Position numbers and translations under genes: made by a program
Assembly: GCA_038212275.1 (NCBI GenBank)
Contig: JBBQUR010000011.1
Span: 32,001 to 96,000, forward strand
Length of the DNA: 64,000 nucleotides
DNA from: Planctomycetota bacterium
Lineage (GTDB): Bacteria > Planctomycetota > B15-G4
Direction: 5' to 3'
In this document: positions 6,663 to 63,797 of the stretch, one piece after another
Layout: each line of letters begins with the position of its first letter
Position numbering within the stretch: position 1 is the first letter of the stretch
The notes under the pieces: generated by a model
What the model saw: the letters and a program-made list of their open reading frames with translations, nothing else
Told to the model about the DNA's origin: nothing
Databases searched by the model: none

Positions 6663-9155
6663 TCAGGGTGTCGTCGCGGTGATCGCGTTGCTGGCCGAGA
6701 AACCGGAGGGCCCCGCGGGATCGATGACCCACTCCTGCATCCAGAGCGTGGCGCCGGACGGCAGGCCCGCCGGCCCGATGAGGGTGAGCTTCTGCGCGCC
6801 GGCGCCGTCGATGGGCAGGCCGGCGATGAGCAGGTCGGGCGCGGGGACCAGCGTGCCGCCCTTGAACGGCGCGTGGATCGCCGAGACACCGACCAGGAGC
6901 GCCGCGCTGCTGCCCGGCTTCGCGTTCGTGAGCGCGAGCGCGAGCACGTCGCCGGCGATGAGCGTGCCCTTGCCGACGAATTGCGGGACGCCGCTCACAC
7001 CTGCCAGGCCGAAGCCGAGGTCGGCCCAGGGTTCCGGGAGCAGGTCGAGGTCGAAGGCATAGGCCGCGCCGGAGCCGGGAATGTCGTTGTTGGCCCCGTT
7101 GCCGTTCACGCCAGTCGCGTTGCTGTCCTCGCTGTACGCGGAACTCGCGACGACGTCGCCGGAGATGGCGACGCCGATGCCGAAGTTGTCGAGCGAGCCG
7201 GTGTTCGAGGCCTTGAGGTAGGCCTGCTGGCTCCACGTGGTGCCGTTGCGCACGAAGACGTAGGCCGCGCCGGCATCGCCGGCCGCGTCGTCCGAGGCGC
7301 CGTTCACGCCGGTGGCGCCGCCATCTTCGGTCCACGCGCCCACCACGATCGCGTTGCCGGAGACGGCCACCGCGTTGCCGAAGGCGTCGCCATCGCCGGT
7401 GTTGGAGGCCTTGAGGTAGGCCTGCTGACTCCACGTCGCGCCGTTGCGCACGTAGACGTAGGCGGCGCCGGAGTTGACCGCGCCATTGTTGTCGTCGTCG
7501 CCATCCACGCCGGTGGCGTTGCTGTCTTCATTGGGCGCGCCGACGACGACCGTGTCGCCGGAGACGGACACGGACTGTCCGAAGTCCTCGAAGTTGCTCT
7601 GGACCGCGGAGGGTTTGAGGTAGGCCTGCTGCGTCCACGTGGTGCCGCTGCGCGCGAACACCCACGCCGCGCCGACGCGGTTCAGGCTGTCGTCGTTCTC
7701 GTCGCCATTCACGCCGGTGGCGTTGCTGTCCTCGCCGGTGCCGCCCACGGCGATCGTGTCACCCGAGATGGCCACCGACTGGCCGAAGAAGTCGTCCACG
7801 TCCGACGTGGAAGCCTTGAGGTAGGCCTGCTGTGTCCACGTCGTACCGCTGCGCACGAACACGTAGGCGGCGCCGGAGCCGGAGAGACTGTTGCTGAGCT
7901 GGTTGCCGTTCACGCCCGTGGCGTTGCTCGCCTCCTTGTAGGCGCCGACGACGATGCCGTCGCCCGCGATGGCGACGGAGATCCCGAACCAGTCGTTCGC
8001 GCCGGTGTTCGAGGCTTTGAGATACGCCTGCTGGCTCCACGTGGTGCCGTTGCGCACGAAGACGTAGGCCGCGCCGGAGGACAAGGCGGAGTTGTCGGCC
8101 TGGCTGCCGTTCACGCCGACGGCGCTGCTGTCCTCGAGCCACGCGCCCACGACGATGGTGTCGCCAGAGATCGCGACCGCGCGGCCGAACTGGTCGAGCG
8201 CACCGGTGTTCGAGGCCTTGAGATAGGCCTGTTGGCTCCACGTGCCGCCGGTGCGCACGAACACGTACGCCGCGCCGGCGTTCTGCAGGCTGTTGTTCGC
8301 CTGGTCACCGTTCACGCCGGTGGCGTTGCTGAACTCCAGCTCCGCGCCGACGACCACCGTGTCGTCCGAGACGGCGATCACGCGCCCGAACTCGTCGAAG
8401 GAGCCGGGGTTCGAGGCCTTGAGATACGCCTGCTGCGCGATGGGATCGACGGTGAGCGGGTAGCGTGCGCCGTCCTCCTCCACGCAGAGGTGCAGCAGGT
8501 CGCCCGTGCGCTCGATGCGCGCGGCGAGTTCGCGACCGTCGGCATCGAAGGCCGTCAGGCCGCTGTAGGTGAGCGCGACGGCGCCGGTCCCGTCGAGGAA
8601 GTGCACGCCGCGGCCGTCGCCGTCCACGTCGGGGGCCAGCGTGCCGTCCACGGCCAACGTCAGCGTGAGCGGGCCGCGCTGCGCCTCGCCGCACGGCGGG
8701 CGCTGCAGCACGGTGAAGCCGTGCTCGAGGCCGCGCGCATCGTTGAGGTACCACTCCTGCAGCGTGGCGTCCCAGTTCCGGGCCATGCGTGCACCGTCGG
8801 TGGCGAGGCTCGCCGGCTCGACGACGAGGCTCTCGTTGCCAGCGAAGCCGTAGCTCCTGAGTTGCAGGCCCCACGTCCAGCCGCCGGCAGCGGGCACGGT
8901 GCTCGCACCGTGATCATCGATGCGCGTGTGCCAGCCCTGCCCGGGATTGTGGAGCAGGTAGCCGCCGTCCACCGGTTGCGCCGCGTGCCGGGCGGCCTCA
9001 TGCGCGGCACGGATGCCGGACCAGTCGGCGGCGCTGAACCCGCCACGGGCCGGGTCGGCCAACGGGCCGGTGGATGGGACGACCAACTGACCAGATGCCG
9101 GGGTGAGCAGGAGCAGCGTGCCGAGAGCGACGACCGGCCAGCGGGAGTGAATCAT
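6663..9155 (-). CDS. Secreted FG-GAP/integrin-alpha beta-propeller protein with 121-aa PFKGG C-terminal domain
   Basis: Signal peptide; repeated QQAYLKASN..D.FG..VA.SGD.VVGA..EDS units; conserved tail at 6663-7028. Confidence 0.92.
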   Translation of the reverse strand: MIHSRWPVVALGTLLLLTPASGQLVVPSTGPLADPARGGFSAADWSGIRAAHEAARHAAQPVDGGYLLHNPGQGWHTRIDDHGASTVPAAGGWTWGLQLRSYGFAGNESLVVEPASLATDGARMARNWDATLQEWYLNDARGLEHGFTVLQRPPCGEAQRGPLTLTLAVDGTLAPDVDGDGRGVHFLDGTGAVALTYSGLTAFDADGRELAARIERTGDLLHLCVEEDGARYPLTVDPIAQQAYLKASNPGSFDEFGRVIAVSDDTVVVGAELEFSNATGVNGDQANNSLQNAGAAYVFVRTGGTWSQQAYLKASNTGALDQFGRAVAISGDTIVVGAWLEDSSAVGVNGSQADNSALSSGAAYVFVRNGTTWSQQAYLKASNTGANDWFGISVAIAGDGIVVGAYKEASNATGVNGNQLSNSLSGSGAAYVFVRSGTTWTQQAYLKASTSDVDDFFGQSVAISGDTIAVGGTGEDSNATGVNGDENDDSLNRVGAAWVFARSGTTWTQQAYLKPSAVQSNFEDFGQSVSVSGDTVVVGAPNEDSNATGVDGDDDNNGAVNSGAAYVYVRNGATWSQQAYLKASNTGDGDAFGNAVAVSGNAIVVGAWTEDGGATGVNGASDDAAGDAGAAYVFVRNGTTWSQQAYLKASNTGSLDNFGIGVAISGDVVASSAYSEDSNATGVNGNGANNDIPGSGAAYAFDLDLLPEPWADLGFGLAGVSGVPQFVGKGTLIAGDVLALALTNAKPGSSAALLVGVSAIHAPFKGGTLVPAPDLLIAGLPIDGAGAQKLTLIGPAGLPSGATLWMQEWVIDPAGPSGFSASNAITATTP

Positions 9156-9306: not shown

Positions 9307-9336
9307 GGGGACTCACGCGACGCCGGGCCTTTTGCG

Positions 9337-9789
9337 CTACGGCGAGATTCCCTGCACGGCGTTCGACAGCGCGATGCCGGCGGGCGCCGCGTCATCGGGC
9401 AGCGGAGAGGGCACACCGTTGCCGGGCGCGAGGTCACCGACGACCGGGTTGGAGATGTCGTGGCAGGTGCCGCACAGTTCCGATTGGCGGTGCAGCTTGC
9501 TCTGGATGGTCGAGTGGAAGGCTGGCGGATCGAGATAGGGCCCGAGCAGCTCCGAGCCGTTCCAGAGCACGTACTCGCCGCAGCCGACGAAGCCCTTGGC
9601 CGGGTTGCCGCCGTCGTTGGCGATGTAGGGCGGGTACTGGGTCCCGAGGATCTCGGACTGGTCCGGGTTGGTGATCCGATGGCAGGCGATGCACACCACG
9701 CCGTCACCGTCGATGATCGTGTCGGCCGCAGCCCGCGCGGCGCCGAGCGCCGTCGCCGCAGCGAACATCACGCACGTCAGGAGCTTCAT
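9337..9789 (-). CDS. Exported c-type cytochrome with two CxxCH motifs, possibly a truncated multiheme remnant
   Basis: Signal peptide, CIACH and CGTCH; 150 aa. Confidence 0.7.
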   Translation of the reverse strand: MKLLTCVMFAAATALGAARAAADTIIDGDGVVCIACHRITNPDQSEILGTQYPPYIANDGGNPAKGFVGCGEYVLWNGSELLGPYLDPPAFHSTIQSKLHRQSELCGTCHDISNPVVGDLAPGNGVPSPLPDDAAPAGIALSNAVQGISP

Positions 9790-10269: not shown

Positions 10270-10770
10270 TCAGACGTCCTGGGCGGTCAACTCGCCTGTG
10301 GCGCCGTTGCACGAGATGCTGCGGCGCAGGCCGTCGCAGAGCAGCGTGACGGTCCCGCCCGCGAGCGGCACGCCCTGCGCATCGAAGACGAGGGCGATGC
10401 CCGTGCTGCCGAAGTCCGCGGCGTCGATCGCGATGCCGTGCGGTTCACCTGGCTTGCTGAAGCTGACCACGTAGGGCTGCTTGGTGAGGGGATCGGGCAC
10501 CTGCGTGCCGGTGATGTCCACGATCGTGAAGCGATCGTGCTCGAGGTCGAACACGACGCCGCAGGGTGAGCGAGCAGAGCGTGCCACGGCGCACGCGTGG
10601 GTCATCGCATCGCGCACCGACACTTCCGCGAGATCCAGCGCCTGCGCACCGCTGCGGCCCGAGATCAGGCCGGTGATGCCGCTGAGGAATCCCATGATCA
10701 GCACGACCACCAGGATTTCCACCAGGGTCAGGCCGGCTTCGGCGCGGCGCGGGGGCAGCGTCATGGCCAT
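10270..10770 (-). CDS. Prepilin-type protein, GspH/FimT-like
   Basis: AG|LTLVEIL class III signal; LVFDAQGVP and GGTVTL typical of the GspH/FimT C-terminus. Confidence 0.88.
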   Translation of the reverse strand: MAMTLPPRRAEAGLTLVEILVVVLIMGFLSGITGLISGRSGAQALDLAEVSVRDAMTHACAVARSARSPCGVVFDLEHDRFTIVDITGTQVPDPLTKQPYVVSFSKPGEPHGIAIDAADFGSTGIALVFDAQGVPLAGGTVTLLCDGLRRSISCNGATGELTAQDV

Positions 10771-12843: not shown

Positions 12844-12844
12844 G

Positions 12845-16566: not shown

Positions 16567-16573
16567 GCGCCCC

Positions 16574-19558: not shown

Positions 19559-20812
19559 ATGTCTCGATCCAGCCTGCTCACGTCCTTCGTCGGCGCCGCG
19601 GTCCGCGGCACGCCGCTTTCCCGGCGCATCGCCCCCCGCTCCGCGTCTGCGCGGCTCGCGGCCGCGCTGCTTGTCGTGGCGGCGCTCGTCGTCGCAATGC
19701 CCGCCGCGCAGGCCGGCCTCACGCTGGCGAGCCAGTTCAACCCGGGCATCGGCCAGCTCGTCGCCGGCGCGTTCGACCCGGTCAACGGCACGGTGTGGGT
19801 GTACGGCGGATTCGGCGCCGACCTCCGCCAGTACACGCTGGCCGGCGCTTTCGTCTCGTCGATCCCGCGGCCCGGCGAGAGCGCCGATGACTTCGATCTC
19901 GAGGTCCTTCCCGCCGCGATCGTGCTCAACGGCACGCCCATCCCCGCGGGCACGCTGCTCGTGATCAACGGCGAGTCTGGCGTCGCCGAGATCTACGCCG
20001 TGGACAAGCTCACGGGCGCCGTGCTCGCCACGCTCCCCACCGCCTTCGGCACGAACCACGTCGTCGGCGGCGCCTACCACCCTGGCCGCGACAGTTTCTT
20101 CCTCGTGCAGGACAAGGTCGCGACCGGCGCGCCGAACCAGAGCCTCGTCGCGGAGGTGGACCGGGCCACCGGCGCGGTGCTCGGCAGCTTCAAGGTGGAC
20201 AGCCAGCTCCCCGGCTTCACGGTCAACTACGGCGACATCGAGGTCAGCGCGGCCACCGGCAACCTCTGGATCGTGAGCAGCGACGAGACGTCGATCGCGG
20301 AGTTCACGCCGGCGGGTGTCGTCGTGCAACAGCTCGCGCTGCCGGCGGGTGTCAGCTCGCTGAGCGGCATCGGCCTCGACGACGCGGGCGGCGGTGCGTG
20401 GGTCACGTCGTCGAGCGGCGTGGTCTCGCATCTCGGCGGCGCCACGTGGTCGCACCTCGACCACGCGCTCGCGGGCAGCGCGGGCCTGCCGACGCTCACC
20501 GGCTCCGGCACGCTCGCGTCGGGCGCGCCGACGACGCTGACCATCGCGCACGCCAAGCCGCTCTCGACGGCCTACCTGATCCTCGGCTTCGCCCAGCTCT
20601 CCGCGCCCTTCAAGGGCGGGACGCTCGTGCCGCAGCCCGACATCGTGAGCCCTGCACTCCCCGTGAGCGCCGCCGGCTCGACGGCCGTCGCCTTTCCATG
20701 GCCGGCGGGCATCCCGAGCGGATTCCCGCTCTGGTACCAGGCCTGGATCGCGGACGGCGCCGCGGCCGCAGGATTCGCCGCGACCAACGGACTGAAGTCG
20801 ATCACGCCGTGA
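19559..20812 (+). CDS. Secreted beta-propeller-like protein with 121-aa PFKGG C-terminal domain
   Basis: Signal peptide ending AQA; tail at 20447-20812; GGAG upstream. Confidence 0.85.
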   Translation: MSRSSLLTSFVGAAVRGTPLSRRIAPRSASARLAAALLVVAALVVAMPAAQAGLTLASQFNPGIGQLVAGAFDPVNGTVWVYGGFGADLRQYTLAGAFVSSIPRPGESADDFDLEVLPAAIVLNGTPIPAGTLLVINGESGVAEIYAVDKLTGAVLATLPTAFGTNHVVGGAYHPGRDSFFLVQDKVATGAPNQSLVAEVDRATGAVLGSFKVDSQLPGFTVNYGDIEVSAATGNLWIVSSDETSIAEFTPAGVVVQQLALPAGVSSLSGIGLDDAGGGAWVTSSSGVVSHLGGATWSHLDHALAGSAGLPTLTGSGTLASGAPTTLTIAHAKPLSTAYLILGFAQLSAPFKGGTLVPQPDIVSPALPVSAAGSTAVAFPWPAGIPSGFPLWYQAWIADGAAAAGFAATNGLKSITP

Positions 20813-23103: not shown

Positions 23104-23248
23104 AGGCGCCACACACTAAGCGATGGCGCTGGCGGCAACCATCAAGCGGGCAGCGACGGGTCGGCTACAATCCCGCGCCCTGCAACCGGTCGCGCCCCGC
23201 AACCGGTCACGCCCCGAAACATGTCGCGCCCCACCCCGAGAGACACCC

Positions 23249-24985
23249 ATGACCGCTGCCCGCACCCCCGTCACCGGCGCGACCCCCGTCTCGCAACCAC
23301 TGTTCCCGACGCCCCGGGGCGCCGCGCCCTGCGCCTCGTCAGTAGCGTCAGCGTCCTCGAGGCCGGCGCTGTCGGCTCGGTTCGGCACCGCTGCGGCGCT
23401 GGCCGCCGCGATGCTCGTCGGTGCCTCGGCCGTGGCGCAGACGCCGCAGGCCACGCTCTTCGGCGATCACGCGGCCGACGCCTCGGGCGCCGCGCTGGCC
23501 ACCCTGCCCGATCTCGACGGCGACGGCCGCGCCGAGCTCATCGTCGGTGCGCCGGGCGACGGCAGCCAGGCTGAGCGCACCGTCCGCGTGCGCCGCAGCT
23601 CGGACGGCGGCCTCCTGCTGCGACTGGTGGACAAGACGCCGGGCGCGCGCTTCGGCGCCGCGGTCGCCGGGCTGGCGGACGTGAACGCGGATGGCCTCCC
23701 CGACCTCGCCGTGGGCTCGCCCGGCAGCGCGCCGGGCCCCGGACGCGTGCGGCTCTTCTCCGCCGCGGACGGCGCCGTGCTGCTCGACTTGTTCTCCGGC
23801 GGCAATGACTCCTGGGACGGCTTCGGCGCCGCGCTTGCGCCTCTGGCCGACATCGACGGCGACGGCGCCTCGGACCTGTTCGTCGGCGCCCCCTCGCTGT
23901 CCGATGAGCAGCCGGGCAGCGCCAGCATCCGCAGCGGAGCGACCGGCGCGGTGCTCGCCACCTACGTCGGTCTCGCGCCGGGCGACCGCTTCGGTGCGGC
24001 CCTGTCGGGCGTCGGTGACGTGAACGCCGACGGCACGGATGACCTGCTGATCGGTGCGCCGGCCGGCGGCTACGCGCAGGTTCGCTCCGGCGCCGACGGC
24101 AGCGTGCTGCTCCAGCTCATCGGCACCGGCGGTGACTTCGGCGCCGCGGTCGCCGCTGCGGGCGACGTCGACGGTGACGGCCACGCCGACCTCGCCGTGG
24201 GCGCGCCGGGCCTCAGCCGCGTGGATGTGCTCTCCGGCGCGAATGGCTCGCTGCTGCGGCGCGTGTCGCGCGAGGGCGCCTTCGGTGCCGCGATCGCCGC
24301 AGCCGGCGACTGGAATGGCGACGGCACGGAAGACTTCCTCGTCGGCGCGCCCGAGGAAACGGTGGCGGGTGGCCTCGGAGCCGGCAGCGTCTACGCCATC
24401 TCCGGAGCGCAGGGTGACGTGCTCTTCAAGGCGCCCGGCGCGGCGGCCGGTGAGCATCAGGGTGCGGCCGTGGCGGTGCTCGGGACGGCCGGCCCCGGCG
24501 TGAAGCCCGATCTTGCCGTCGGCGCCACCGGACTGGTCGGCCCGGCGGCGGAGGCCTCCGGCGGCACGCGCCTCTACGCGGGCAAGCTGGTCGGCTCGAT
24601 CGTGCCGTACGGCATCGGCTGCCCCGGCTCCTTCCTCATCACGCCGCGGCTGGACCTCTCCGGCGACCCGTATCCCGGCGCCCAGGTGAAGCTCGCCATC
24701 ACCAAGGCGCTCGGTGGCTCCTTTGCGCTGCTCTTCGTGGGTGGCGGACAGGGCCTGACGCCCTTCATGAACGGCTGCATCCTCTGGGTGGCGCCGGTGC
24801 TGGTCCCGCCGATCACGCTGCCGCTCGACGGCCCGGGGCCTGGCGCCGGCAACATCACGCTGACGGAGCGCCTGCCCGAGCAGTTGCCTGTCGGATTCGT
24901 GGTGACGATGCAGGCCGTTGTCGCCGATCCAGGCGCAGACGGCGGGCTTTCGTCCACCAGCGCGATTCAACTCACGATCCAGTGA
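23249..24985 (+). CDS. Secreted FG-GAP repeat protein with a divergent C-terminal domain
   Basis: Repeated FGAA....D.DGDG..DL.VGAP; tail YGIGCPG...Q....DPGA.GG.S.TSAIQLTIQ. Confidence 0.9.
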   Translation: MTAARTPVTGATPVSQPLFPTPRGAAPCASSVASASSRPALSARFGTAAALAAAMLVGASAVAQTPQATLFGDHAADASGAALATLPDLDGDGRAELIVGAPGDGSQAERTVRVRRSSDGGLLLRLVDKTPGARFGAAVAGLADVNADGLPDLAVGSPGSAPGPGRVRLFSAADGAVLLDLFSGGNDSWDGFGAALAPLADIDGDGASDLFVGAPSLSDEQPGSASIRSGATGAVLATYVGLAPGDRFGAALSGVGDVNADGTDDLLIGAPAGGYAQVRSGADGSVLLQLIGTGGDFGAAVAAAGDVDGDGHADLAVGAPGLSRVDVLSGANGSLLRRVSREGAFGAAIAAAGDWNGDGTEDFLVGAPEETVAGGLGAGSVYAISGAQGDVLFKAPGAAAGEHQGAAVAVLGTAGPGVKPDLAVGATGLVGPAAEASGGTRLYAGKLVGSIVPYGIGCPGSFLITPRLDLSGDPYPGAQVKLAITKALGGSFALLFVGGGQGLTPFMNGCILWVAPVLVPPITLPLDGPGPGAGNITLTERLPEQLPVGFVVTMQAVVADPGADGGLSSTSAIQLTIQ

Positions 24986-40493: not shown

Positions 40494-40853
40494 CTAGGGC
40501 GCCTCCGCCAGCAGCACGGCGGCGATCGGGGCGCCAAGTCGGTAGCCGGCTCCCTGCGGCATGTGCAGCGACTGCCCGACAAGCAGCAGTCCATCGAGTC
40601 CAGGCGGAAGCGGGCCGAGGGCTGCCTGGAAGCTCAAAGCCCCCGAGGCAGGCAGCGCTCCCAGCGACACGATCAGCGGGGGCGGCGGCACGGCCAGCGC
40701 AGCCTGATAGGCGGAAAGGTGGGGCGCGGCGCTGTTCGGCTCGAAGCCCAGCAGCATCAGAATGATGTCACCGGGTGCGCCGCTCACCTGCACGAACTGC
40801 TGACTGCCGACCACCGTCGGCGAGGCGCAGCGCGTGCCGCTGCACGGAAGCAT
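40494..40853 (-). pseudogene. Orphan C-terminal-domain fragment of a secreted protein
   Basis: Resembles the tail of 53782..55071 (LG..PASG...LP.G..G....Q); no signal peptide or passenger domain. Confidence 0.55.
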
Positions 40854-44764: not shown

Positions 44765-46564
44765 ATGACCGCGGCTGATCCCTCCCAGGAGTCTTCGACG
44801 ATGAATCGGATCCGCATCCTCTGCACCGCCACCGCGTTGTCGCTCGGCGCCGTTCCCGCGCCCGCCCAGTGGAGTGCCGACCCGGCCGGCAACCTCGCGG
44901 TGGCGGATGCCGCCAGCGACCAGTCCCAGGCGAAACTCGAGGCTGTCGCCGGCCAGGCCGTGTACCTGAGCTGGTTCGACGGCATCGGCAGCGGCTACGA
45001 CGTGCGCCTGCAGCAGCTCGACGCCGCGGGCCACGAGCTGTTCCCGCACGCGGGCGTGCTCGTGGCGGACCGCGGCTTCAGCTCCACGCAGGACTACGGT
45101 CTCTCGCACAGCGCCACGAACGACGCGCTGCTGGCCTTCCGCGACGATCGTCCCGGCGGCGTGCAGATCACCGCAGCCAAGGTGACCCCCGCCGGCAACC
45201 AGCCCTGGGGTGCGGCCGGCATCCAGCTCACCGCCACGGCTGCTTTCGTGGCCTCGCCGAAGATCGCCGGCACGGCGGACGGCGGCGCCGTGGTCGCCTG
45301 GACTCAGGACTCCTCCGTGCGCCTGCGCAAGCTGGACGCAAGCGGCGTCAAGCAGTGGGCCAGCGACGTCGTGCTCACGCCGGCCGCGGGCACCTACTCG
45401 GTCAGCGACCTGCACGCCGCGGGCAACGACGTCGTGCTCTCGATCGTGCACCAGACAGGCAGCTTCACTTCGCCGAAACAGCTGCGCACGCAGAAGTTCG
45501 ACAGCAACGGCACCGCGCTGTGGGGCGCCTCGCCCGTGTCCGTGTTCGACAGCGGCTCGCTGCAGTTCGGCAACTTCCCGGGCTTCGAGCCGGACGGCTC
45601 CGGTGGCGCGGTGTTCTCGTGGTACGGCACCTCGCCGTTGCAGTGCTGGGCGCAGCACATCAAGTCCGACGGGACCGAGGCCTATCCGCACAACGGCGTG
45701 GCGGTCTCCACCAACGCAGGCCAGGTCCGCGTGAATCCGTGGGCCTCCTACGATGCGGACAACGGCACGACGGTGGTGAGCTGGGTCGAACAGAATTCGC
45801 TGCAGTCCCAGTTCGGCCTGTCGAGCCAGAAGCTCGGCGCGACGGGCAACCGGCTCTGGGGCGCGCAGGGCGCGGTGCAGATCCCGCTCGGCAGCGCCGA
45901 GATCAGCAACGTGCGCAACATCACGTCCGCCGACACCACCTTCGTGTACTGGATGACGGCGCCCTCCTTCGGCCAGGACGTGATCCGCGGCCGGCGCCTC
46001 GCATCCGACGGCAGCACCGACATGGGGCCGTTCGACGTGGCCTCCACACCCAGCGACAAGCTGCGTGTGGCGCTGACGCGTGACAGCGCAGGGCAGATGG
46101 TCCTGGCCTGGACCGACGCGCTGGTCGACGAGGGTGACCTGCTCGCGCAGAACGTGAACTGTGACGGCACGCTGGGTGCACCCGCGCTCGGCGCTCACTG
46201 GACCGACCTCGGACAGGGCCTGGCGGGCCTCACGGGCGTGCCGACGCTGTCGGGCGAAGGCACGCTCTGTGGCGGTGCACCGTTCACGATCACGCTCGCC
46301 AACGCCCGCCCCAACAGCAGCGCGGCGCTGCTGGGCGGCTTCACCCAGGTCTTCCAGCCCTTCAAGGGCGGAGTGCTCGTGCCCAGCCCGGACCTGATCT
46401 TCGTCGGCCTGCCGACCGGCCCCGCGGGTTCGCTCGTGCTGGGCAGCATCTGGCCCGGCAACGTGCCCAGCGGTTTCCAGTTCACGATGCAGTGCTGGAT
46501 CAGCGACGTCGCCGGCCCCAAGGGTTTCTCGGCCAGCAACGGTCTGGAAGCCCAGTCGCCGTAA
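44765..46564 (+). CDS. Secreted repeat protein with 121-aa PFKGG C-terminal domain
   Basis: Signal peptide; DG.GGA...W and G...WG repeats; tail at 46199-46564. Alternative start ATG 44801. Confidence 0.88.
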   Translation: MTAADPSQESSTMNRIRILCTATALSLGAVPAPAQWSADPAGNLAVADAASDQSQAKLEAVAGQAVYLSWFDGIGSGYDVRLQQLDAAGHELFPHAGVLVADRGFSSTQDYGLSHSATNDALLAFRDDRPGGVQITAAKVTPAGNQPWGAAGIQLTATAAFVASPKIAGTADGGAVVAWTQDSSVRLRKLDASGVKQWASDVVLTPAAGTYSVSDLHAAGNDVVLSIVHQTGSFTSPKQLRTQKFDSNGTALWGASPVSVFDSGSLQFGNFPGFEPDGSGGAVFSWYGTSPLQCWAQHIKSDGTEAYPHNGVAVSTNAGQVRVNPWASYDADNGTTVVSWVEQNSLQSQFGLSSQKLGATGNRLWGAQGAVQIPLGSAEISNVRNITSADTTFVYWMTAPSFGQDVIRGRRLASDGSTDMGPFDVASTPSDKLRVALTRDSAGQMVLAWTDALVDEGDLLAQNVNCDGTLGAPALGAHWTDLGQGLAGLTGVPTLSGEGTLCGGAPFTITLANARPNSSAALLGGFTQVFQPFKGGVLVPSPDLIFVGLPTGPAGSLVLGSIWPGNVPSGFQFTMQCWISDVAGPKGFSASNGLEAQSP

Positions 46565-50243: not shown

Positions 50244-51806
50244 ATGACCCCGCGTGTGCTTGCCGCGCTGCTGATCGGCGCCCTCATTGCCTCACCGGGC
50301 GCCGCGCTGTCGGCGCAGTGCACCCCCGGTTTCGACGTCTCGCCCGGTGTCCCGGGATTCGATCTCGAGGTCTTCGCGTTCGAGCGGTTCGGGGCCGGGA
50401 CGCATGAGCTCTACGCGGGCGGGCGCTTCAAGAAGTTCGGTGCGACGCCGATACACGGCCTCGCCCGCTGGACCGGTACGGCGTGGCAGGCTGTCGGCGC
50501 GGGAGTAGCCGGCGGCCCGGTGCCGGCCGTGCGCGCCCTCCTGGCCGGCGATGACGGTTCGGGTCCATCCCTCTTCGTGGGCGGGGACTTCTCGTCGATC
50601 GATGGCGTGCCAGCGGGGTGCATCGCGCGCTTTGACGGTGAGCACTTTCACGCGATCGGCAACGGGTTGCCGGCCGCGGTGAATGCGCTCGCTCTGTACG
50701 ACGCCGGCAGCGGACCGCGGCTCTACGCAGGAACCGACTTCACCGACAGCAGCGTGCCGGGGGGCGTGTACCGCTTCGAAGCGGGGACCTGGAGTCTCGT
50801 GGCGGGTGGAGTCGCCGTGGGCCCGGGAAACAACGCGGGCTCGGTCGACGCTCTCGCGGTGTACGGCTCAGGCCGCGGTGAACTCTACGCGGGCGGAATA
50901 TTCGTCCTCGCGGGCGGAATCGCCGCCACATACATCGCGCGCTTCGACGGCACGGCGTGGCGCGACGTCAACGGTGGCATGGACGAGCCCGTGCACACCA
51001 TGGCCACGTTCGATGATGGCACCGGTCCTCAGCTCTTCTGCGGCGGCACCTTCCTTCATGCCGGTGCGCCGGCGGTTCCCGCAACGCACGCGGCGCGTTG
51101 GAACGGCAGTTCATGGAACCACCTCGGCAACACGAATCCCTTCGAATTCTTCGGAATCATCGGCGCCATCGAGAGCTTCGATGACGGCAGCGGCCCTGCG
51201 CTCTATCTCGCGGGCGTCACCGCCTTCGTCCCGACACCGGTTTTCCGGTGGGATGGCGGCCCGGCCTGGACGCCGCTCGCCACGACGCTGTCGGGCCGGG
51301 TCTACGCCATGGCGACGTTGCCCGACGGCCTGTCCAACGACCTGTTCCTTGGCGGCATGATCACGGCAGTCGGTGCGGCTCCCGTCGCGGGAGCCGCACG
51401 CTACCGGGGCTGTCCGCTGCCGCCCGCGAGCCTGAAAGCGATCACGCCGCCGCAACTGGGCACGGATCTCGTGCTGCACGGCAGCAGTCCCGGAGGAGCC
51501 GGCCGGCCGTACTTCTGCGGCTTCGCTTTCAGCAGTCGCCCCGGCATCCAGCTCGCGCAGGGCACTCAGGTGCCGCTCGCCATCGATCAACTCTTGTTGC
51601 TCTCGCTCGATGCGGCGAACGTGCTCTTCGACGACCAGTTCGGAACGCTTGACGCCGATTCGAGTGCCACCGTGCGGCTGCACCTGCCGCCGCTCCCCAT
51701 CGCGGCGGGAATCGACATCGTCGCGTCGCTGATCGTGTTCGGCGCCGGCGAGCCGGACGGCATTCACGCGGTGTCGCCCGCACTGGCACTGACGCTGAGC
51801 AACTGA
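50244..51806 (+). CDS. Secreted beta-propeller protein with a C-terminal domain
   Basis: Signal peptide; repeated DDG.GP.L..GG.F...IAR(W/F)DG..W. Confidence 0.88.
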   Translation: MTPRVLAALLIGALIASPGAALSAQCTPGFDVSPGVPGFDLEVFAFERFGAGTHELYAGGRFKKFGATPIHGLARWTGTAWQAVGAGVAGGPVPAVRALLAGDDGSGPSLFVGGDFSSIDGVPAGCIARFDGEHFHAIGNGLPAAVNALALYDAGSGPRLYAGTDFTDSSVPGGVYRFEAGTWSLVAGGVAVGPGNNAGSVDALAVYGSGRGELYAGGIFVLAGGIAATYIARFDGTAWRDVNGGMDEPVHTMATFDDGTGPQLFCGGTFLHAGAPAVPATHAARWNGSSWNHLGNTNPFEFFGIIGAIESFDDGSGPALYLAGVTAFVPTPVFRWDGGPAWTPLATTLSGRVYAMATLPDGLSNDLFLGGMITAVGAAPVAGAARYRGCPLPPASLKAITPPQLGTDLVLHGSSPGGAGRPYFCGFAFSSRPGIQLAQGTQVPLAIDQLLLLSLDAANVLFDDQFGTLDADSSATVRLHLPPLPIAAGIDIVASLIVFGAGEPDGIHAVSPALALTLSN

Positions 51807-52048: not shown

Positions 52049-53575
52049 ATGTACCGAACGATCTGTGCCCTGCTGCTGTCTGCATGCCCCGCCATGTCAC
52101 AGGTGGTCTTCGAACCGCCGGTGGCCACGCCGCTCTTTCACGTCACGCAAGGCGTCATCAGCGCCGACCTGAATCTCGACGGTCACGTCGACCTGATCAC
52201 GATGCCGCGCTTTCCGGGCGGCTTCTCCACAGCGGCGTTCTCGGTGCTGCTGGGAAACGGCGATGGCGGCTTCGGAGCGCCGCTCTTCACGTCGCTGGGC
52301 GCGCAGAATGCCGGCCGCGGCCGCGTGGCCTTCCTGAACGATGATGCGATTCCCGATCTGGTGCTGCCCTTTCATCCGGGTGTCGAGTCGGTGCGACTCT
52401 TCTTCGGCGCGGGCGACGGCACCTTCCCGACCTCACAGACGATCAGCGTCGCCTTCGCGCAGTCGATCGCGGATGTCATCCCCGTCGACCTGACGGGTGA
52501 CGGCAAGCTCGATTTCTTCGTGCTCGATGCGGGCCTGTCGATCTTCCTGCCCGGCAGGCTGCTGGCCCTGGTGGCCGACGGAGCGGGCTACACGCTGGTC
52601 TCGGGTCCGTCGCTGCAATTGGGCGCCACTCACGTCGCACTGGGCGATGTGAACGGCGACGCCGTGCTCGATGCCGTCGTGGCAAATGACATCTCCGGCA
52701 GCCTCTCCATCGCGCTGGGCCTGGGAGCGGGCAACTTTGCCGCGCCGACGAACGTGGCCGTGGGCGGGTCGCCGCGCGACCTCGCCATGGCCGACTTCGA
52801 TGGCGACGGAAAGCTCGACCTCGCCTTCGCGGACGCCTCGTCCGCCAACCGCGTCGTGTTGATGCACGGCGATGGCGCAGGGCACTTCTCGACGGTGCAG
52901 ACGCTCATCCTCGCAGGCACTCCGTCGAGACTCTCGGTCGGCATGCTCGATCCGGACGCGATGCTCGACCTGGTCGTGAGCCGGTTCGGCAGTGGCGAAA
53001 TCACGGTGCTTCGCGGTGTCGGCGACGGCAGCTTCACGGTCGGCGTCACGGTGAGCCATGTCCCCAATGCCGACGGCTCGACGCTGGCGGACTTCGACGA
53101 GGATGGCCTCCCGGACGTCGCGGTCGGCTCCTACGTCGGCCTCGGCACCTTCGAGCCGTTCAGCAGCGTGTACGTGATGCGCAATCACACCTATTCGACG
53201 AGTTCTCCATTCCTCGACCTCGGACATGCGCTCGCGGGCAGCAAGGGCTACCCGATCCTGCTCGCGGAGGGCGACCTTCAACCGGCCACGCCCATGCAGC
53301 TGCGTCTGGCGAACGGCCTCCCGCTGGGACAGGCCACGCTGGTGCTTGGATTCCGCCAGATCGATGTGCCGTTCAAGGGCGGCGTCATGGTGCCGTCCGT
53401 CGACGTGCTCGTCCCGGGGCTGGCCATCGATGCGCAGGGCGGCGTGACGCTGGACGCGTCGTGGCCCGCCGGCGTCTCCTCAGGCCTCAGCTTCTTCGCG
53501 CAATACTGGTTCAAGGACCTTGCCGCACCGACGCACGAAGGCAGCTCGAGCGCGGTGCGGGTGATCACGCCGTAG
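52049..53575 (+). CDS. Secreted VCBS/FG-GAP repeat protein with 121-aa PFKGG C-terminal domain
   Basis: D.NGDG..DL and G.GDG.F repeats; tail at 53210-53575. Confidence 0.9.
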   Translation: MYRTICALLLSACPAMSQVVFEPPVATPLFHVTQGVISADLNLDGHVDLITMPRFPGGFSTAAFSVLLGNGDGGFGAPLFTSLGAQNAGRGRVAFLNDDAIPDLVLPFHPGVESVRLFFGAGDGTFPTSQTISVAFAQSIADVIPVDLTGDGKLDFFVLDAGLSIFLPGRLLALVADGAGYTLVSGPSLQLGATHVALGDVNGDAVLDAVVANDISGSLSIALGLGAGNFAAPTNVAVGGSPRDLAMADFDGDGKLDLAFADASSANRVVLMHGDGAGHFSTVQTLILAGTPSRLSVGMLDPDAMLDLVVSRFGSGEITVLRGVGDGSFTVGVTVSHVPNADGSTLADFDEDGLPDVAVGSYVGLGTFEPFSSVYVMRNHTYSTSSPFLDLGHALAGSKGYPILLAEGDLQPATPMQLRLANGLPLGQATLVLGFRQIDVPFKGGVMVPSVDVLVPGLAIDAQGGVTLDASWPAGVSSGLSFFAQYWFKDLAAPTHEGSSSAVRVITP

Positions 53576-53781: not shown

Positions 53782-55071
53782 GTGATCCGCCCGACCCTTT
53801 CGATCCTGCTGCTTGGCCTGCTCTCGTTCCACGCCCCCGCCCAGCAGGTGTGGGTCGTGGACGACACCGCCGGCACCGGCGCTGATTTCTTCGAACCGCA
53901 GTCCGCGATCAACGCGGCCTCCGACGGCGACACGATCCTCGTGCGCGCCGGCTTCTACAACGCGGCGTTCATCATCGATGGCAAGTCGCTGACGGTCGCG
54001 GCCGACGCCGGCGCGGCGGCACATGTGCCGGGCTTCCGCGTGCGGAACCTGGCCGCGGGACAATCGGTGGCGGTCATCGGCCTGACCGCGGACCTGTTCG
54101 CCAACCAGTCGTTCACGCCCGGCGTCGAGGTCGTCAAGATCACGGAGTGCGCGGGGCCGGTCCTCGTCCAGGACTGCCTGCTTCCCGGCGGCACGCTGTT
54201 CGTCGTGGCGCCGCTGTTGCCGACGGTCCGCATCGTCAACGCCGCCGCCGTGAACTTCGAGCGCTGCACGCTGCTGGGTCGCATCGACACGCCGACGCTC
54301 TCGTCGTCCGTCGTCCTCACGGCGGAGGCGCTCAGCAGCACCGGTTCGCAGGTGCAACTCGCGCACTGCACCGTCACCGGTGCGGCCGGGCATGACGATG
54401 TGGCGCCCCACCCCGCGTCGCCGGGCAGGCAAGCCGTCACGCTGCTCGGCTCGCGCCTGATCCTTCAGGGAAGCACGATCACCGGAGGTCAGGGCGGCAA
54501 CGGCGGTTTCAGCCCGAGCTCGCAGTCGTGCTCGCTCGGCCAGCGGGGCGGCGACGGCATCGTGTTCGGCGATGCCGCATCCACCGCCGTGCAGCGTGCA
54601 TCGACCGTGAGCGGCGGTGCGGGTGGTATCGGCGGCGTCAACCCGGATCTCGGTTCCGGGTGCCCTGCCGGAGCCGACGGCGCGGCCTTCGCGGGACCGG
54701 GGCTGGCGACGAGCCTTCCCGGCGGCAGCGATCCGCTCGACATCGTTCCGGCGATCGTCCGCGAGGGCGGCGCCGGAACGCTGGTGCTGCACGGCACGTC
54801 GGGCAGCAGCGCATGGCTGCTGCCGGGCTTCGGCCAGTCGCAGCTCTGGTTGCCGGCGCACGCGGGCGTGCTGCTGCCGACGGCGACGGCGCTCATCGTC
54901 CCGCTCGGTGTGGTGCCGGCCTCGGGCGAGATCACGCTGCCTTACGTCGCGCCGGTGCTGCCGGCGGGCGTCACGGGCGTCACCCTGGTGCTGCAATCGG
55001 CCAGCGTCGGCGCGGGACCGGTGCTGCTCGGCGGCGGCGGCGCGCTCGTGATCATCGACGCGGCTCTCTGA
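53782..55071 (+). CDS. Secreted beta-helix-like protein with Gly-rich segment and C-terminal domain
   Basis: WVVDD..G.GADF...Q.AINAA.DGDTILVR.G.Y; GGAG SD. Confidence 0.85.
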   Translation: MIRPTLSILLLGLLSFHAPAQQVWVVDDTAGTGADFFEPQSAINAASDGDTILVRAGFYNAAFIIDGKSLTVAADAGAAAHVPGFRVRNLAAGQSVAVIGLTADLFANQSFTPGVEVVKITECAGPVLVQDCLLPGGTLFVVAPLLPTVRIVNAAAVNFERCTLLGRIDTPTLSSSVVLTAEALSSTGSQVQLAHCTVTGAAGHDDVAPHPASPGRQAVTLLGSRLILQGSTITGGQGGNGGFSPSSQSCSLGQRGGDGIVFGDAASTAVQRASTVSGGAGGIGGVNPDLGSGCPAGADGAAFAGPGLATSLPGGSDPLDIVPAIVREGGAGTLVLHGTSGSSAWLLPGFGQSQLWLPAHAGVLLPTATALIVPLGVVPASGEITLPYVAPVLPAGVTGVTLVLQSASVGAGPVLLGGGGALVIIDAAL

Positions 55072-58271: not shown

Positions 58272-59750
58272 ATGACACTCACGCTGCGAGTCGCCCTCTG
58301 CCTTGCCGTACTGGCCTTCCTCGGCGCAGAGATCTCCGCGCAGGGCGGCGGCTTCCACGCGGGCGAACTCTTCGTCTACACCAACGGCCTGACGTCGCCC
58401 GGCTACACCGGTGGCGGCATCATGCGCGTGGACCCGGTGACCGGCGCGAGCTCCGTGCTCGTGCAGACTCTGGGCGCGTACGACTTCACGGGCTCGATCG
58501 CCTTCGACCCGTACCGCCAGCGGCTCGTCTTCATCGCGGCGCTGCCGGGCGTCGATCCCTCGCCCAGGAACTATCTCTGGTTCGCGGACGGCGCCGGCAA
58601 CGTGCAGAACGTCTCCAAGCCCATCTTTCCCGAGGGCGTTCTCATGAACAGCATCGCGCCGACGCGCGATGGCCGCATCTACGCTTACGCGGTCATCAAC
58701 ACCACCGAGCCCCTGCGCTGGTTCGACGCGGCCAACCAGATTCACGTGCTGTACGACGCCGACGGCGTCACGCCGATGAAGATCGACGGTGACGGCTCCT
58801 ATCTGATGAACGGCATGATCCACGATGCGGGCACCAACGCGCTGTTCGTCGCCTCCACCAGGCCGAAGCCGGGCTTCCCGGAGGCGGCCGTCAACGTGCG
58901 CAAGCTGCCGCTCTCGCCCGATGGCTCGCGCGTCGTCGGCCCGGTCGGCAACGTGCAGTTCGAGATCAGCGCCAATCCGCCGGCTGCGAGCAGCGGCGAA
59001 ACGCCGCGCGGATGGAGCTACGGCCCGAACGGTCAGCTCGTGCTCGTCATCCTGTCCATCGACACCGAGGTCATGCCGCGCATGTTGCTCGTCGATCCGG
59101 TGACGTCGGCCATCTCCGTGTGGGGCAGCAACGGCGACACGATGATTCCCAATGGCGTCAGCACCAACACGGGCGGCGCCTACTGCTCCACGCTGAACAA
59201 GGTGGTCATGTCGGACTACTGGAACTCCAAGCTGCGCGCCTACGCGCAGGGTTCCACCGGCGGGCCGGGCAGCGTCATCCCGACCAGCCCGGTCTCGCCC
59301 ACGGGAAACGGCTACTACCTGAATGTCGTCGCGGTGCCGCCCGATGCGTGCACCGGCGGCTGGATCGCCTACGGCGTCGGACTCAAGGGCGCGGGCGATC
59401 TCGTGCCGAAGCTCATCGGTGCGGGCTGCGCCGAGCCTGGTGCCTCGATCACGCTGAAGATTTCCAACGCGGTCGGCGGCGCGAACGCGGCTCTCTTCGT
59501 CGGCCTCTCGCAGGGCGCGCTGCCCTTCAAGGGAGGCACGTTTCACCTCGGCTCCGCGCTGCTCACGATCAACCTGCCGCTGGGTGGCACGCCCGGCGCG
59601 GCCGGCGCGGGCGCGCTCACGCTGCCCACGTCGCTGCCGGCACTTCCGGCGCTTGCGGGCATGAGCATCTACCTGCAGGCCGCATGCAGCGACGCGGCCG
59701 CCGTGAAGGGCGTCTCGCTCACGCAGGGGCTCGAGCTGGAGATCGGCTGA
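58272..59750 (+). CDS. Secreted protein with a longer (129-aa) PFKGG C-terminal domain
   Basis: Signal peptide; tail from W at 59361 with PFKGG...YLQ...D....GVSLTQGL. Confidence 0.87.
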   Translation: MTLTLRVALCLAVLAFLGAEISAQGGGFHAGELFVYTNGLTSPGYTGGGIMRVDPVTGASSVLVQTLGAYDFTGSIAFDPYRQRLVFIAALPGVDPSPRNYLWFADGAGNVQNVSKPIFPEGVLMNSIAPTRDGRIYAYAVINTTEPLRWFDAANQIHVLYDADGVTPMKIDGDGSYLMNGMIHDAGTNALFVASTRPKPGFPEAAVNVRKLPLSPDGSRVVGPVGNVQFEISANPPAASSGETPRGWSYGPNGQLVLVILSIDTEVMPRMLLVDPVTSAISVWGSNGDTMIPNGVSTNTGGAYCSTLNKVVMSDYWNSKLRAYAQGSTGGPGSVIPTSPVSPTGNGYYLNVVAVPPDACTGGWIAYGVGLKGAGDLVPKLIGAGCAEPGASITLKISNAVGGANAALFVGLSQGALPFKGGTFHLGSALLTINLPLGGTPGAAGAGALTLPTSLPALPALAGMSIYLQAACSDAAAVKGVSLTQGLELEIG

Positions 59751-61097: not shown

Positions 61098-63797
61098 TTA
61101 CGGCACCAGGCCGCGAAGCGCATTGGACAGCGCGACGTCGTGCACGGCGCCGGCGTCCTGGATGGCCCACTGCATCCACAGGGTGGTGCCGGCCGGCACG
61201 CCGGACGGCATCGTGAACGGCAGCGCGAGGTCGCCTGCCGCGTTCGTGCCGAGGAAGAGCATCAGCAGGCTCGGCACCGGCACCAGCACTCCGCCCTTGA
61301 AGGGCACCGGCGAACTGGCCAGCGCCGTGAAGAGCGCGGCCGGCGCCGACGGTGCGGCGTGCGTGAGCGTGACCGCATTGCTGCTGCCCGCGACGAGCGT
61401 GCCTGCACCGGTGAGCAGCGGCAGGCCGAGCGTGCCGGCCAGCGCCGAACCCTGGTGACTCCACGCCGAGTCGGCCTGGCCGAAGAGAATGGACACCTGC
61501 TCGCTCAGCGTGATGACCGGCATGCGCAGCGCCATGGCCGCCACGTCGAGCAAGCCGTCACCGTTGAGGTCGCCCGACGCCACCCAGAGAGCTTGACCGC
61601 CGATGCCGTGGCGCTTGCCGGGCAGCAGGTGGCCTTCGCCGTCGTTGACGTAGAGCACCGCATCCTCCGCGCCGCCGACCACGAGGTCGGGCAGGCCGTC
61701 TCCCGAGAAGTCCCCGGACGTGATGCCGTTGGTGCCGTTGAAGGAGAGCGACTTCGGCGCGGGCTGTGCGCTCCACGGGAAGAAGCCGCCTGCGCCGTCG
61801 TTGCGCATGACGACGACCTGGTCGAAGGAGCCCCACGTGCCGAGGCCGGCGCCGACGAGATCCCGCGCACCGTCGCCGTCCATGTCCACGGCGCGCACGG
61901 TGATGGTGAGCACGTAGGGGGCGAGGTCGTGCGCGACGGGCGTGGCGAAGCTGCCGTCGCCGTTGCCGTGCAGCACGAGGTAGCCGTTGGTGGGCGCCGG
62001 CGCGCCGCCGAACTGCGTGGCGCCCACGCCGACGAGATCCACGCGGCCGTCGCCGTCCAGGTCCGCGGCGTCAAGGTCGCTCATGCCCCACTGCAGCTTG
62101 TTGATGGTGGTCGCAGCGGCGAAGGTGCCGTCACCCTGATTGGCCAGCAGGTAGATCTGACTGATGGGCTTGCTCGGGCAGCCGCCGGTTTCGTTGCACG
62201 CGACATCGAGGTCACCGTCGCCGTCGAAGTCCCCCGCCGCGAGGTGGTACACGCCGCACGAGTTCGGCAGCGTCCACTGCACGTTGGGACCCCACTGGCC
62301 ATTGCCGAGATTGCGGTTGGTGTAGAAGTGATACGGCGCGGAGGACGGGTCCTTGACCTTGAGGATCTCCGGGCGCCCGTCGCCGTCGAGGTCGCGCAGG
62401 AGGAAGTTGCGGAAGCGGCCGGCGCCGCCGAAGAACGTGGTGCGGGTGAACGCGCCGTTCCCGTCATTGAGGTAGGTGTAGACGCTCACCGACATCGCGA
62501 CGATGTCGAGGTCGCCGTCGAGGTCCAGGTCCGCGATCTCGCAGCGATAGGCGTCCACCGCCTCCAGGTGCAGGAACTCGGGGAAGGCGCCGCCGTCGTT
62601 GCGGTGCACCTGCAGCGTGAGCAGGCCGTGATTGGTGATGAGCACGTCGCGGTCGCCGTCGGCGTCGATGTCGGCCGTGGAGATCGAACGCGAGTACTCG
62701 CCGGAGGCGAAGGTCTGCGGCGGCGCGAAGGCCCCGCCACCGAGGCCGCGCAGGAAGCCCCACCACGACAGCGCCTGGCCGCCGCAGGCCACGAGGTCGG
62801 GCACGCCGTCGCCGGTCACGTCGTCCAGGGACATCGAGTACGGCGTGGCCATCTCGTAGCCGGTCTCGATGGCCGTGACCGCGCCGAAGCTGCCATTGCC
62901 CTGGTTCTTCCAGAGCGAGAGCGCGCTGCTGCCGGGAATGCCGGCGGACGTACCGAAGCCGTAGACGACGTCGAGATCGCCGTCGGTGTCCACGTCGCCG
63001 AGGGCGACGGCCGGGACGGGGCCGGGGAAGGCCAGCGGCGCAGCGCCGGTCACGAGGCCGAGCGGCGCCGCGAAGCCACCGGCCGTGGCCAGCGAGACGG
63101 TCACTTCGGGAAGCGACTGCAGGTGCGTCGTCACGACGTCGGAGCGGCCGTCGCCGTCGAGGTCGCCCACGGCCAGCCAGTAGGGCTCGGGGCCGACCGG
63201 GATGTCGGTGCGCGTGAAGTGCGCGGAGCCGTCGTTGCGCAGCAGCGAGAGGTCGTTCTCGCCGGGCTTGCGATTCGCGGTGACAAGGTCGAGGTCGCCG
63301 TCGAGGTCGAAGTCGGCCGCCGCGATGGACATCGGGCCCTTGCCGCACGGGATGACCACGGCTGCGTCGAAACTGCCGTCGCCCTGATTGCGGTAGAGCA
63401 GCACGCTCTGCCCGGACGCACCGTTTTCAGATGCCTGCGTGAAGGCGAGGTCCAGGTCTCCGTCGCCGTCGAGGTCCGCGGCGCACACCGCGGAGGTCTC
63501 GCCGGGCGAGGGCATGAACACCGGGGCGCCGAACTCGCCGGTGCCGTCGTTGAACGAGATCGAGACCTGCGACGACAGGAAGTTGCCGATCTGCGCGTGC
63601 GCCACGTCGGGCGAGCCGTCGCCGTTCAGGTCCGCGACCACGTGCGCATTGGGCCGGTAGGGCGAGTTGGGCAGGTTGGCGCCGGCGCCGGTCTCGAAGG
63701 CGCGCTGCGGCGACGAAAGCGGCGAGTGCTGCGCGGCAGCCGTCACGGCGGACGAGCCGAGCGCCCCGAGGCAAAGCAGGAGAGTGCGGTGATTCAT
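61098..63797 (-). CDS. Large secreted VCBS/FG-GAP repeat protein with 121-aa PFKGG C-terminal domain
   Basis: Signal peptide; more than 12 D.DGDG..D repeats; tail at 61098-61463. Confidence 0.92.
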   Translation of the reverse strand: MNHRTLLLCLGALGSSAVTAAAQHSPLSSPQRAFETGAGANLPNSPYRPNAHVVADLNGDGSPDVAHAQIGNFLSSQVSISFNDGTGEFGAPVFMPSPGETSAVCAADLDGDGDLDLAFTQASENGASGQSVLLYRNQGDGSFDAAVVIPCGKGPMSIAAADFDLDGDLDLVTANRKPGENDLSLLRNDGSAHFTRTDIPVGPEPYWLAVGDLDGDGRSDVVTTHLQSLPEVTVSLATAGGFAAPLGLVTGAAPLAFPGPVPAVALGDVDTDGDLDVVYGFGTSAGIPGSSALSLWKNQGNGSFGAVTAIETGYEMATPYSMSLDDVTGDGVPDLVACGGQALSWWGFLRGLGGGAFAPPQTFASGEYSRSISTADIDADGDRDVLITNHGLLTLQVHRNDGGAFPEFLHLEAVDAYRCEIADLDLDGDLDIVAMSVSVYTYLNDGNGAFTRTTFFGGAGRFRNFLLRDLDGDGRPEILKVKDPSSAPYHFYTNRNLGNGQWGPNVQWTLPNSCGVYHLAAGDFDGDGDLDVACNETGGCPSKPISQIYLLANQGDGTFAAATTINKLQWGMSDLDAADLDGDGRVDLVGVGATQFGGAPAPTNGYLVLHGNGDGSFATPVAHDLAPYVLTITVRAVDMDGDGARDLVGAGLGTWGSFDQVVVMRNDGAGGFFPWSAQPAPKSLSFNGTNGITSGDFSGDGLPDLVVGGAEDAVLYVNDGEGHLLPGKRHGIGGQALWVASGDLNGDGLLDVAAMALRMPVITLSEQVSILFGQADSAWSHQGSALAGTLGLPLLTGAGTLVAGSSNAVTLTHAAPSAPAALFTALASSPVPFKGGVLVPVPSLLMLFLGTNAAGDLALPFTMPSGVPAGTTLWMQWAIQDAGAVHDVALSNALRGLVP

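Follow-up and report, generated by a model that had tools for sequence, protein, structure and literature searches.

A 64,000-nucleotide stretch of the genome of a Planctomycetota bacterium (assembly GCA_038212275.1, contig JBBQUR010000011.1, positions 32,001 to 96,000) contains several genes for exported proteins that share a terminal domain of ~120 amino acids. This whole stretch, hereafter the window, corresponds to G000:C11:32001-96000, where G000 denotes the source genome (4.65 Mb, 91% complete). The domain defines a family of ~165 proteins, or ~5% of 3,314 crudely called genes of that genome, to which no family in Pfam, NCBIfam or, by sequence, the PDB was found to correspond. It is most likely a handle by which proteins are brought to the cell surface or kept there, a function that we infer. 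In the reading that we favour, to which we assign a probability of roughly 0.45, it would be an uncleaved docking handle for the surface display of exported proteins routed through a type II secretion system (T2SS).

A terminal domain shared by exported proteins of the window

Five 366-bp tails, at 6663-7028 (-), 20447-20812 (+), 46199-46564 (+), 53210-53575 (+) and 61098-61463 (-), give stop-free translations of 121 amino acids that each terminate in proline and align with one another without a gap, and a sixth at 59361-59750 (+) translates to 129 amino acids and requires short insertions to be aligned. A preliminary description of the window had recorded these six tails as diverged copies and not the product of recent duplication, and both statements were borne out by translation and alignment. 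Ungapped pairwise identities amongst the five were only 32-53% for protein and 49-64% for DNA, hence they are considered to be old paralogues.

The tail at 6663-7028, a representative of the subtype with a PFKGG motif, ends an exported protein of 830 aa (6663..9155, -) with a signal peptide and an FG-GAP_2 propeller, and that at 20447-20812 ends an exported protein of 417 aa (19559..20812, +) with a propeller-like passenger that gave a weak Phytase-like match. Two further exported proteins, of 587 aa (44801..46564, +) and 492 aa (58272..59750, +), lack a Pfam match, the latter carrying the 129-aa domain subtype, and the remaining two are exported FG-GAP proteins at 52049..53575 (+) and 61098..63797 (-; 899 aa). 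All six genes were judged by eye to encode signal-peptide-like N-termini. Searches of Pfam and NCBIfam annotated passengers, with FG-GAP in three of the six proteins, and returned nothing on the tails.

The domain family in the source genome

Gene, signal-peptide, lipobox and transmembrane (TM) calls were made throughout with crude in-house heuristics. A hidden Markov model (HMM) of the six tails matched 130 of the 44,411 six-frame open reading frames (ORFs) of the source genome. Iteration gave 141 matches on 141 ORFs, that is, a single copy per protein and never a tandem array, with no match in reversed decoys and with 135 matches lying no more than five residues from the C-terminus; the genome-wide count, initially proposed as a check, shows that the similarity of the tails is not due to chance. 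A wider profile retrieved 161 proteins (best decoy E 0.35) and the union of the profiles 168 (best decoy E 0.0029, the weakest few members being doubtful). An HMM whose 27 rows all came from five distant genomes, hereafter the foreign-only HMM, still retrieved 146 proteins of the source genome at E<1e-3, with a best decoy of 0.23.

The domain was C-terminal in 155 of the 168 proteins, within the first 150 residues in 11 and internal in two, one of which is doubtful, and so occupied a terminus in 166/168. Ten of the 11 copies in the N-terminal region directly follow the signal peptide and are themselves followed by a passenger, and the other stands alone. Internal copies are accordingly rare, but the strictly C-terminal placement first described could not be upheld given ~10 N-terminal copies, one stand-alone copy and one clearly internal copy, and the N-terminal copies leave the implied cleavage of the domain as a sorting signal unsupported. 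The fixed length of 121 amino acids and the PFKGG consensus were likewise found to hold within one subtype only: exactly 121 aa is the length of 46/82 full-length C-terminal tails (range 117-130), and PFKGG is exact in 69/141 members and does not persist in distant families.

Amongst the less typical members are a 173-aa protein that apparently consists of a signal peptide and a lone divergent domain (G000:C9:46021-46542, E 3e-4) and an exported protein of 1071 aa with an N-terminal copy and no Pfam match along its full length (G000:C12:117725-120940). Orphan fragments of the domain were also observed, at G000:C28:20004, C7:24059, C15:87239, C15:119093, C8:15560 and C2:25658 and at 40494-40853 and 9337-9768 of the window, which suggests frequent shuffling and decay of the domain.

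Predicted structure of the domain

The copy at 20447-20812 was modelled with AlphaFold from a 102-row alignment, resulting in an all-beta model without any helix of four or more residues (predicted local distance difference test, pLDDT, 98; predicted template modelling score, pTM, 0.90). The domain is therefore predicted with high confidence to fold as a compact immunoglobulin (Ig)-like beta-sandwich, to which are added an N-terminal arm and an extra hairpin (residues 50-62) bearing the FKGG turn. Q98 is the sole invariant residue. Hairpins of distant families have a conserved length (mostly 17-19 residues) and remain hydrophobic, including a hydrophobic tip whose sequence is not conserved, but lack the lysine, so that PFKGG names one subtype.

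Fold searches retrieved generic Ig-like sandwiches only, over ~87-101 of the 121 residues, and none stood clear of the others. Ig receptors scored Z 8.4-8.5, and the macroglobulin (MG) domain of A2ML1, at Z 9.3 (root mean square deviation, rmsd, 2.9; 101 residues aligned), was not clear of unrelated Ig folds. Neocarzinostatin (NCS) gave Z 7.2 (rmsd 3.2, 95 residues aligned), with Z 7.0-7.2 for apoproteins of its family, and the related apoprotein C-1027 a sequence E of 0.053, with no Pfam match to this family; a homology or functional link to either the MG or the neocarzinostatin families cannot be claimed. The top Foldseek row was the HPI S-layer protein of Deinococcus, with a non-significant E of 4e-3 (TM-score 0.44). 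No C-terminal domain (CTD) of a type IX secretion system (T9SS) was amongst the matches listed, which does not exclude such a likeness. The initial expectation of a tail devoid of a TM helix, and distinct from T9SS CTD and PEP-CTERM, agrees with the all-beta model and the lack of a library match, and the suggested structural comparison yielded a confident fold and only generic relatives.

Covariation amongst 295 sequences places the N-terminal arm as well as the hairpin against the C-F-G sheet (L4-V61, G47-P62, P52-W100, F45-F110). Both chain termini would lie at one pole (W1-G19, L4-A115, S91-P121), and the tip of the hairpin, together with the BC and FG loops, at the opposite pole (L8-P107, A12-P38, F45-F110, P52-W100), an assignment made from couplings and strand order. 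Such an arrangement would account for the fusion of the domain at either end.

Carrier proteins and their passengers

The signal-peptide heuristic was positive for 134/155 carriers, compared with 1310/3159 other genes, and most of the carriers missed are either fragments or show a signal peptide on inspection. The domain is present on 96/379, about a quarter, of the soluble proteins of at least 250 aa with a cleavable signal. A Pfam scan of 57 of the 141 carriers returned matches for 33, of which 18 were FG-GAP, the others comprising phytase-like, sulfatase, matrixin, metallo-beta-lactamase fold, nuclease, DUF7948/SBBP, CHRD, DUF642, malectin and kelch passengers; a second set of carriers added S8 and M28 peptidases and an alpha/beta hydrolase. 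As judged from their sequences, the passengers are mostly typical surface or extracellular modules, and the early observation of unrelated passengers on signal-peptide proteins is thereby sustained.

A lipobox is rarer amongst carriers (6/102) than amongst others (107/390; p=6e-7), and at least four of the six look like false calls. Charged residues account for 7.3% of the domain as against 14.5% of the passengers (134 proteins). The predicted mature N-terminus is glutamine in 70/96 carriers compared with 122/283 other signal-peptide proteins, an excess reminiscent of the 'Q-rule' of Bacteroidota. One doubtful twin-arginine (Tat) motif was seen amongst carriers. By codon bias the best carrier ranked 122, and no highly expressed structural member stood out.

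Some carriers appear confined to the cell envelope. A GT-C glycosyltransferase with five predicted TM segments (PMT_2; G000:C20:72814-75141) continues through a long, low-complexity Gly-Ala linker into a full copy of the domain, and this fusion is kept in a second genus (G010) at 45% identity, being present in 2/42 genomes of the order; as such it was rejected as core machinery for being too sporadic. A second polytopic membrane protein (G000:C30:25222-28269) carries a divergent copy, and in all two carriers have at least two predicted TM segments. It follows that proteins incapable of being secreted bear the domain in the periplasm. The latter protein is the first of two tandem polytopic proteins of ~1000 aa without a Pfam match (G000:C30:25222-31280), the second of which ends by eye in a similar tail; both look YfhO/GT-C-like. 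CxxCH motifs, numbering nine in G000:C25:40932-43475, two in C23:74322-76082 and one in C25:34271-35236, mark c-type cytochromes with the domain.

Distribution across the Planctomycetota

The domain was identified in 31/31 genomes belonging to the source genome's own family and order, and in 39/201 genomes drawn evenly across the Planctomycetota. A panel of 57 genomes, picked from the positives and negatives of these phylum surveys, comprised 35 genomes with 8 to at least 78 matches, one with a single match and 21 with none, and 43/43 negative genomes remained negative with a broader profile. The domain is thus all-or-none and multi-copy across the phylum. In distant families 26/29 and 10/12 copies are C-terminal, and the rest are N-terminal except for one internal copy. 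The sole copy in G192 (G192:C12:193064-193414) is internal and is probably a stray acquisition.

Amongst representatives clustered at 50% identity, 18,228 have the domain at E<=1e-3 and 883 at E<=1e-30, and 149 of the best 150 end in it. The 30 nearest clusters in the ESM Atlas were all unnamed, Planctomycetota being the commonest phylum, and a search for homologous proteins gave few matches and no informative names. One match carries the source label of a Gammaproteobacteria metagenome-assembled genome, a label that is unconfirmed. Plasmid and phage searches returned no match to the domain. In the literature no title or abstract opening was found to describe it, though supplements and subscription journals could hold a description, and the terms 'secretion', 'S-layer' and 'signal peptide' occur 0 times in the available portion of a preprint on the Saltatorellota (10.1101/817700).

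Comparison with known sorting and anchoring systems

The domain can be compared with the T9SS CTD (PF18962/TIGR04183), with which, going by the available text of PMC4804311, it shares an Ig-like sandwich, presence as a single copy in each of dozens to hundreds of Sec-exported proteins, unrelated passengers and restriction to a lineage. It differs in its length (~120 aa, compared with ~70-80 aa), in its N-terminal arm and hairpin, in lacking a sequence match, and in being found also at the N-terminus (~10/168, and 3/29 in distant genomes) or on inner-membrane proteins. The T9SS CTD models (Por_Secre_tail, type A/B) matched none of the 102 and 57 members scanned. TIGR04183 and Peptidase_C25 were not found in the source genome, the control genomes being silent in the Peptidase_C25 search, and SprA_N matched 0/201 genomes, with the control genomes also silent.

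PEP-CTERM, GlyGly-CTERM and MYXO-CTERM are, from the part of the literature available, likewise C-terminal tags with a many-to-one relationship to exported proteins, but the present domain is a folded unit of 120 aa without their motif, TM helix and basic tail. Neither PEP-CTERM (PF07589) nor dockerin was found in the source genome, and exosortase (PF09721) gave no match in this 91% complete assembly, with the control positive in one genome. Ten or more PEP-CTERM or dockerin matches were present in 0/36 carrier genomes compared with 4/21 non-carriers.

Dockerin, SLH and WxL modules are terminal, uncleaved and portable, occur at either end of a protein and have undergone lineage-wide expansions. 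The domain resembles them in being terminal, portable, found at either end and expanded across a lineage, and differs in fold or sequence and in having no Pfam match; it shows neither a PF00404 match nor the duplicated EF-hand-like calcium loops of dockerin, and, as distinct from dockerin, no cohesin scaffold or other receptor is established for it. The library check proposed at the outset therefore disclosed no characterised domain. We conclude that the domain is not a member of the T9SS CTD, PEP-CTERM or dockerin families and that it would work like that class of module.

A further parallel exists in the Ig and Fn3 domains that hold T2SS secretion signals. According to the accessible part of PMC12369372, VesB contains an Ig fold that acts as a signal and, when grafted, makes beta-lactamase a T2SS substrate, and secretion information in PulA and PelI resides in N-terminal Ig/Fn3 domains. 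The signals of VesB, PelI/Pel3 and PulA share with our domain an Ig-like fold and placement at either end of the cargo, and a T2SS was present in all carriers tested. These signals are, as far as the available text describes them, substrate-specific and read by the GspC PDZ, as opposed to one family spread over about a quarter of the large soluble signal-peptide proteins.

The type II secretion system and a candidate partner

The source genome gave eight secretin matches, amongst them one gspD-E-F-G-H-I-J operon (gspE to gspJ being named from sequence and gene order), with gspK alone at C2:274907-276712. A query with its GspD matched 36/36 carrier genomes compared with 12/21 non-carriers, and the gsp operon was syntenic in the carrier loci examined. 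It lies in a conserved block (G000:C4:218174-230622) in which a rhomboid gene, a gene here termed X, and serS face gspJ-I-H-G-F-E-D, and which does not include GspC, GspL or GspM. Protein X (G000:C4:219145-221259), adjoining the operon, is a single-copy protein of 704 aa with a signal peptide, a TPR-like N-terminal half and no Pfam match. Queried as a sequence, X was found in 35/35 multi-copy genomes and not in the single-copy genome, G192, and gave weak partial matches in 2/21 non-carriers; as a profile it matched 12/12 carriers tested at near full length (E<=3e-60). X lies no more than 15 kb from gspD in 20/30 genomes, farther away in two and on another contig, where distance is undecidable, in eight. 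It is a candidate partner of the domain, a lead and not a result.

A cluster of two secretins, TPR proteins and ExbB/ExbD-like and PilM/O-like genes (G000:C6:123438-138050) was also considered as a universal partner and was rejected, as a one-gene query found it in 12/57 genomes. A crude barrel screen gave 25 candidates; BamA, another protein of the Omp85 type, porins and DUF481 made up those to which an identity could be given, and no giant translocon barrel was amongst the 25.

Proposed mode of action and alternatives

In the docking-handle reading, cargo would cross the inner membrane by Sec, as the signal peptides suggest, and the domain is predicted to fold in the periplasm as an Ig-like sandwich with its N-terminal arm and extra hairpin packed on one sheet. 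With the chain ends at one pole and, opposite to them, the apolar loops that are conserved, as covariation implies, the same face could be offered in N- and C-terminal fusions alike. This face may bind a dedicated envelope partner, with many cargoes served by one receptor, for which TPR-like X, encoded beside the gsp operon, is a lead only; soluble cargo would then exit through the T2SS and be displayed at the surface. A more specific version, that the domain is a dedicated portable T2SS tag read on any passenger and at either end by X as a lineage-specific periplasmic adaptor in place of the GspC PDZ, and would thereby direct about a quarter of the large soluble exported proteins into the T2SS, is considered doubtful.

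Several observations weigh against the T2SS route. Signals for this system are usually composite and substrate-specific, as stated in the available part of PMC7949064, and the Fn3 domains of PelI and Pel3 (Z 8.1/7.7) fall within the generic Ig range of our fold search. A profile search for GspC (PF11356) found none in the source genome, where seven of the PDZ-bearing genes behind 19 matches were read and none of these was clearly GspC. The inner-membrane GT-C carrier cannot be secreted, hence the domain is insufficient for export. X is transcribed towards and not with the gsp operon, in a block conserved with the rhomboid gene, serS and dnaK, and its profile partly matches 13/43 non-carriers, more weakly and mostly through a shared C-terminal module, those in G052 and G055 extending over long stretches. 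Furthermore, a control unknown protein was found in 12/57 genomes, all within the carrier set, from which it appears that the carriers behave as one clade, and as they are kin the co-occurrence of GspD and X may reflect shared ancestry. The search for co-occurring machinery thus returned GspD in all carrier genomes tested and X in the multi-copy ones, but with a pattern that descent could explain; the original notion of a lineage-specific module for export or surface attachment remains the best reading, and its partner is not proven.

The main competitor, possible although on balance unlikely, is a direct membrane or glycolipid anchor, in which the apolar pole of hairpin tip and FG and BC loops binds lipid, lipopolysaccharide or an envelope polymer without a protein receptor, export follows the passenger's own route and the module works like SLH or WxL. 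The low charge of the domain, the depletion of lipoproteins, which are already anchored, amongst carriers and the hydrophobic hairpin tip, in spite of its unconserved sequence, are in keeping with such an anchor, through which a glycosyltransferase could also find its acceptor. The absence of PEP-CTERM and dockerin expansions from carriers points the same way, albeit in a count of kin that are not independent, as does the weak likeness to neocarzinostatin-type ligand-binding apoproteins, though this is marginal and lies inside the generic range. Anchors that bind polymers often occur as repeats, whereas this domain is never in tandem, and covariation suggests that the arm and the hairpin shield the hydrophobic face of its sheet.

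We regard as improbable a tag for periplasmic retention or scaffolding, whose carriers would never cross the outer membrane and would be docked in the often large planctomycete periplasm; this and the lipid anchor are not mutually exclusive. Retention would accommodate the periplasmic position that the domain must have on the GT-C protein, whose fusion is conserved beyond one genus, and on the second polytopic protein, as well as the three carriers with CxxCH motifs. Such membrane-protein carriers are, however, rare, and most identified passengers are adhesin-like propellers and polymer hydrolases. Less probable still is a self-associating, S-layer-like lattice or filament displaying varied passengers: the very high copy number, the apolar composition and the top Foldseek row would suit it, but that row is not significant, codon bias reveals no abundant structural member and the top covariation pairs fit intramolecular contacts. 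Finally, a cleaved signal for export across the outer membrane by a T9SS or a machine like it, which the Ig-like sandwich, the single and mostly C-terminal copy, the kinds of passenger and the frequent N-terminal glutamine would recall, is very improbable, being disfavoured by the ~10 N-terminal copies and by the copy that ends an inner-membrane glycosyltransferase, in addition to the lack of any CTD-model match, the T9SS-component searches, negative although with silent controls, and the crude barrel screen given above.

Further copies and neighbouring genes in the window

In total, the window holds seven clear copies of the domain and three that are divergent or fragmentary; the six tails first reported are all genuine, but the seventh clear copy and the three others had been overlooked. 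The seventh copy (~24599-24985) ends an FG-GAP protein of uncertain start (23123..24985, +) and was matched by the six-tail HMM at E 3e-14 and by the foreign-only HMM at E 9e-20. A divergent copy at ~54730-55071 ends an exported protein of 429 aa (53782..55071, +), with E 3e-5 from an HMM not containing it and E 0.15 from the foreign-only HMM. An exported propeller protein of 520 aa (50244..51806, +) has a probable divergent copy with a longer hydrophobic insert (~51447-51806), whose membership is weak, with E 8e-10 only from an HMM containing it and 0.62 from the foreign-only HMM. The orphan divergent domain at 40494..40853 (-) has neither passenger nor signal peptide and is probably a gene remnant (E 0.11; E 8e-9 with an HMM that may include it; E 0.016 foreign-only). 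A short ORF at 9337..9768 (-) has two CxxCH motifs and, at its end, the domain's final ~20 residues (E 0.17, on inspection of the sequence), and is a probable deletion remnant.

Elsewhere in the window are an RND efflux pair (ACR_tran, HlyD; 1176-5652, -), a prepilin-like gene cluster with N-methylation-type leaders, three scanned genes of which lack a Pfam match (10270-13768, -), a membrane-anchored sulfatase (46776-49619, +) and a gene resembling an extracytoplasmic function (ECF) sigma factor that by eye adjoins a TPR fragment (55108-56159, -).

Significance of the domain family

Were the domain a direct anchor, it would represent a new surface-display module. Were it a T2SS tag, the T2SS here would be working on the principle of the T9SS and the domain would be the first signal of this system to be universal within one organism, and would bear on how this system, described in the available text as having no universal signal, selects its folded substrates. 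The family itself is very large and uncatalogued, and provides a ready marker of the surface proteome for little-studied, deep-branching Planctomycetota.

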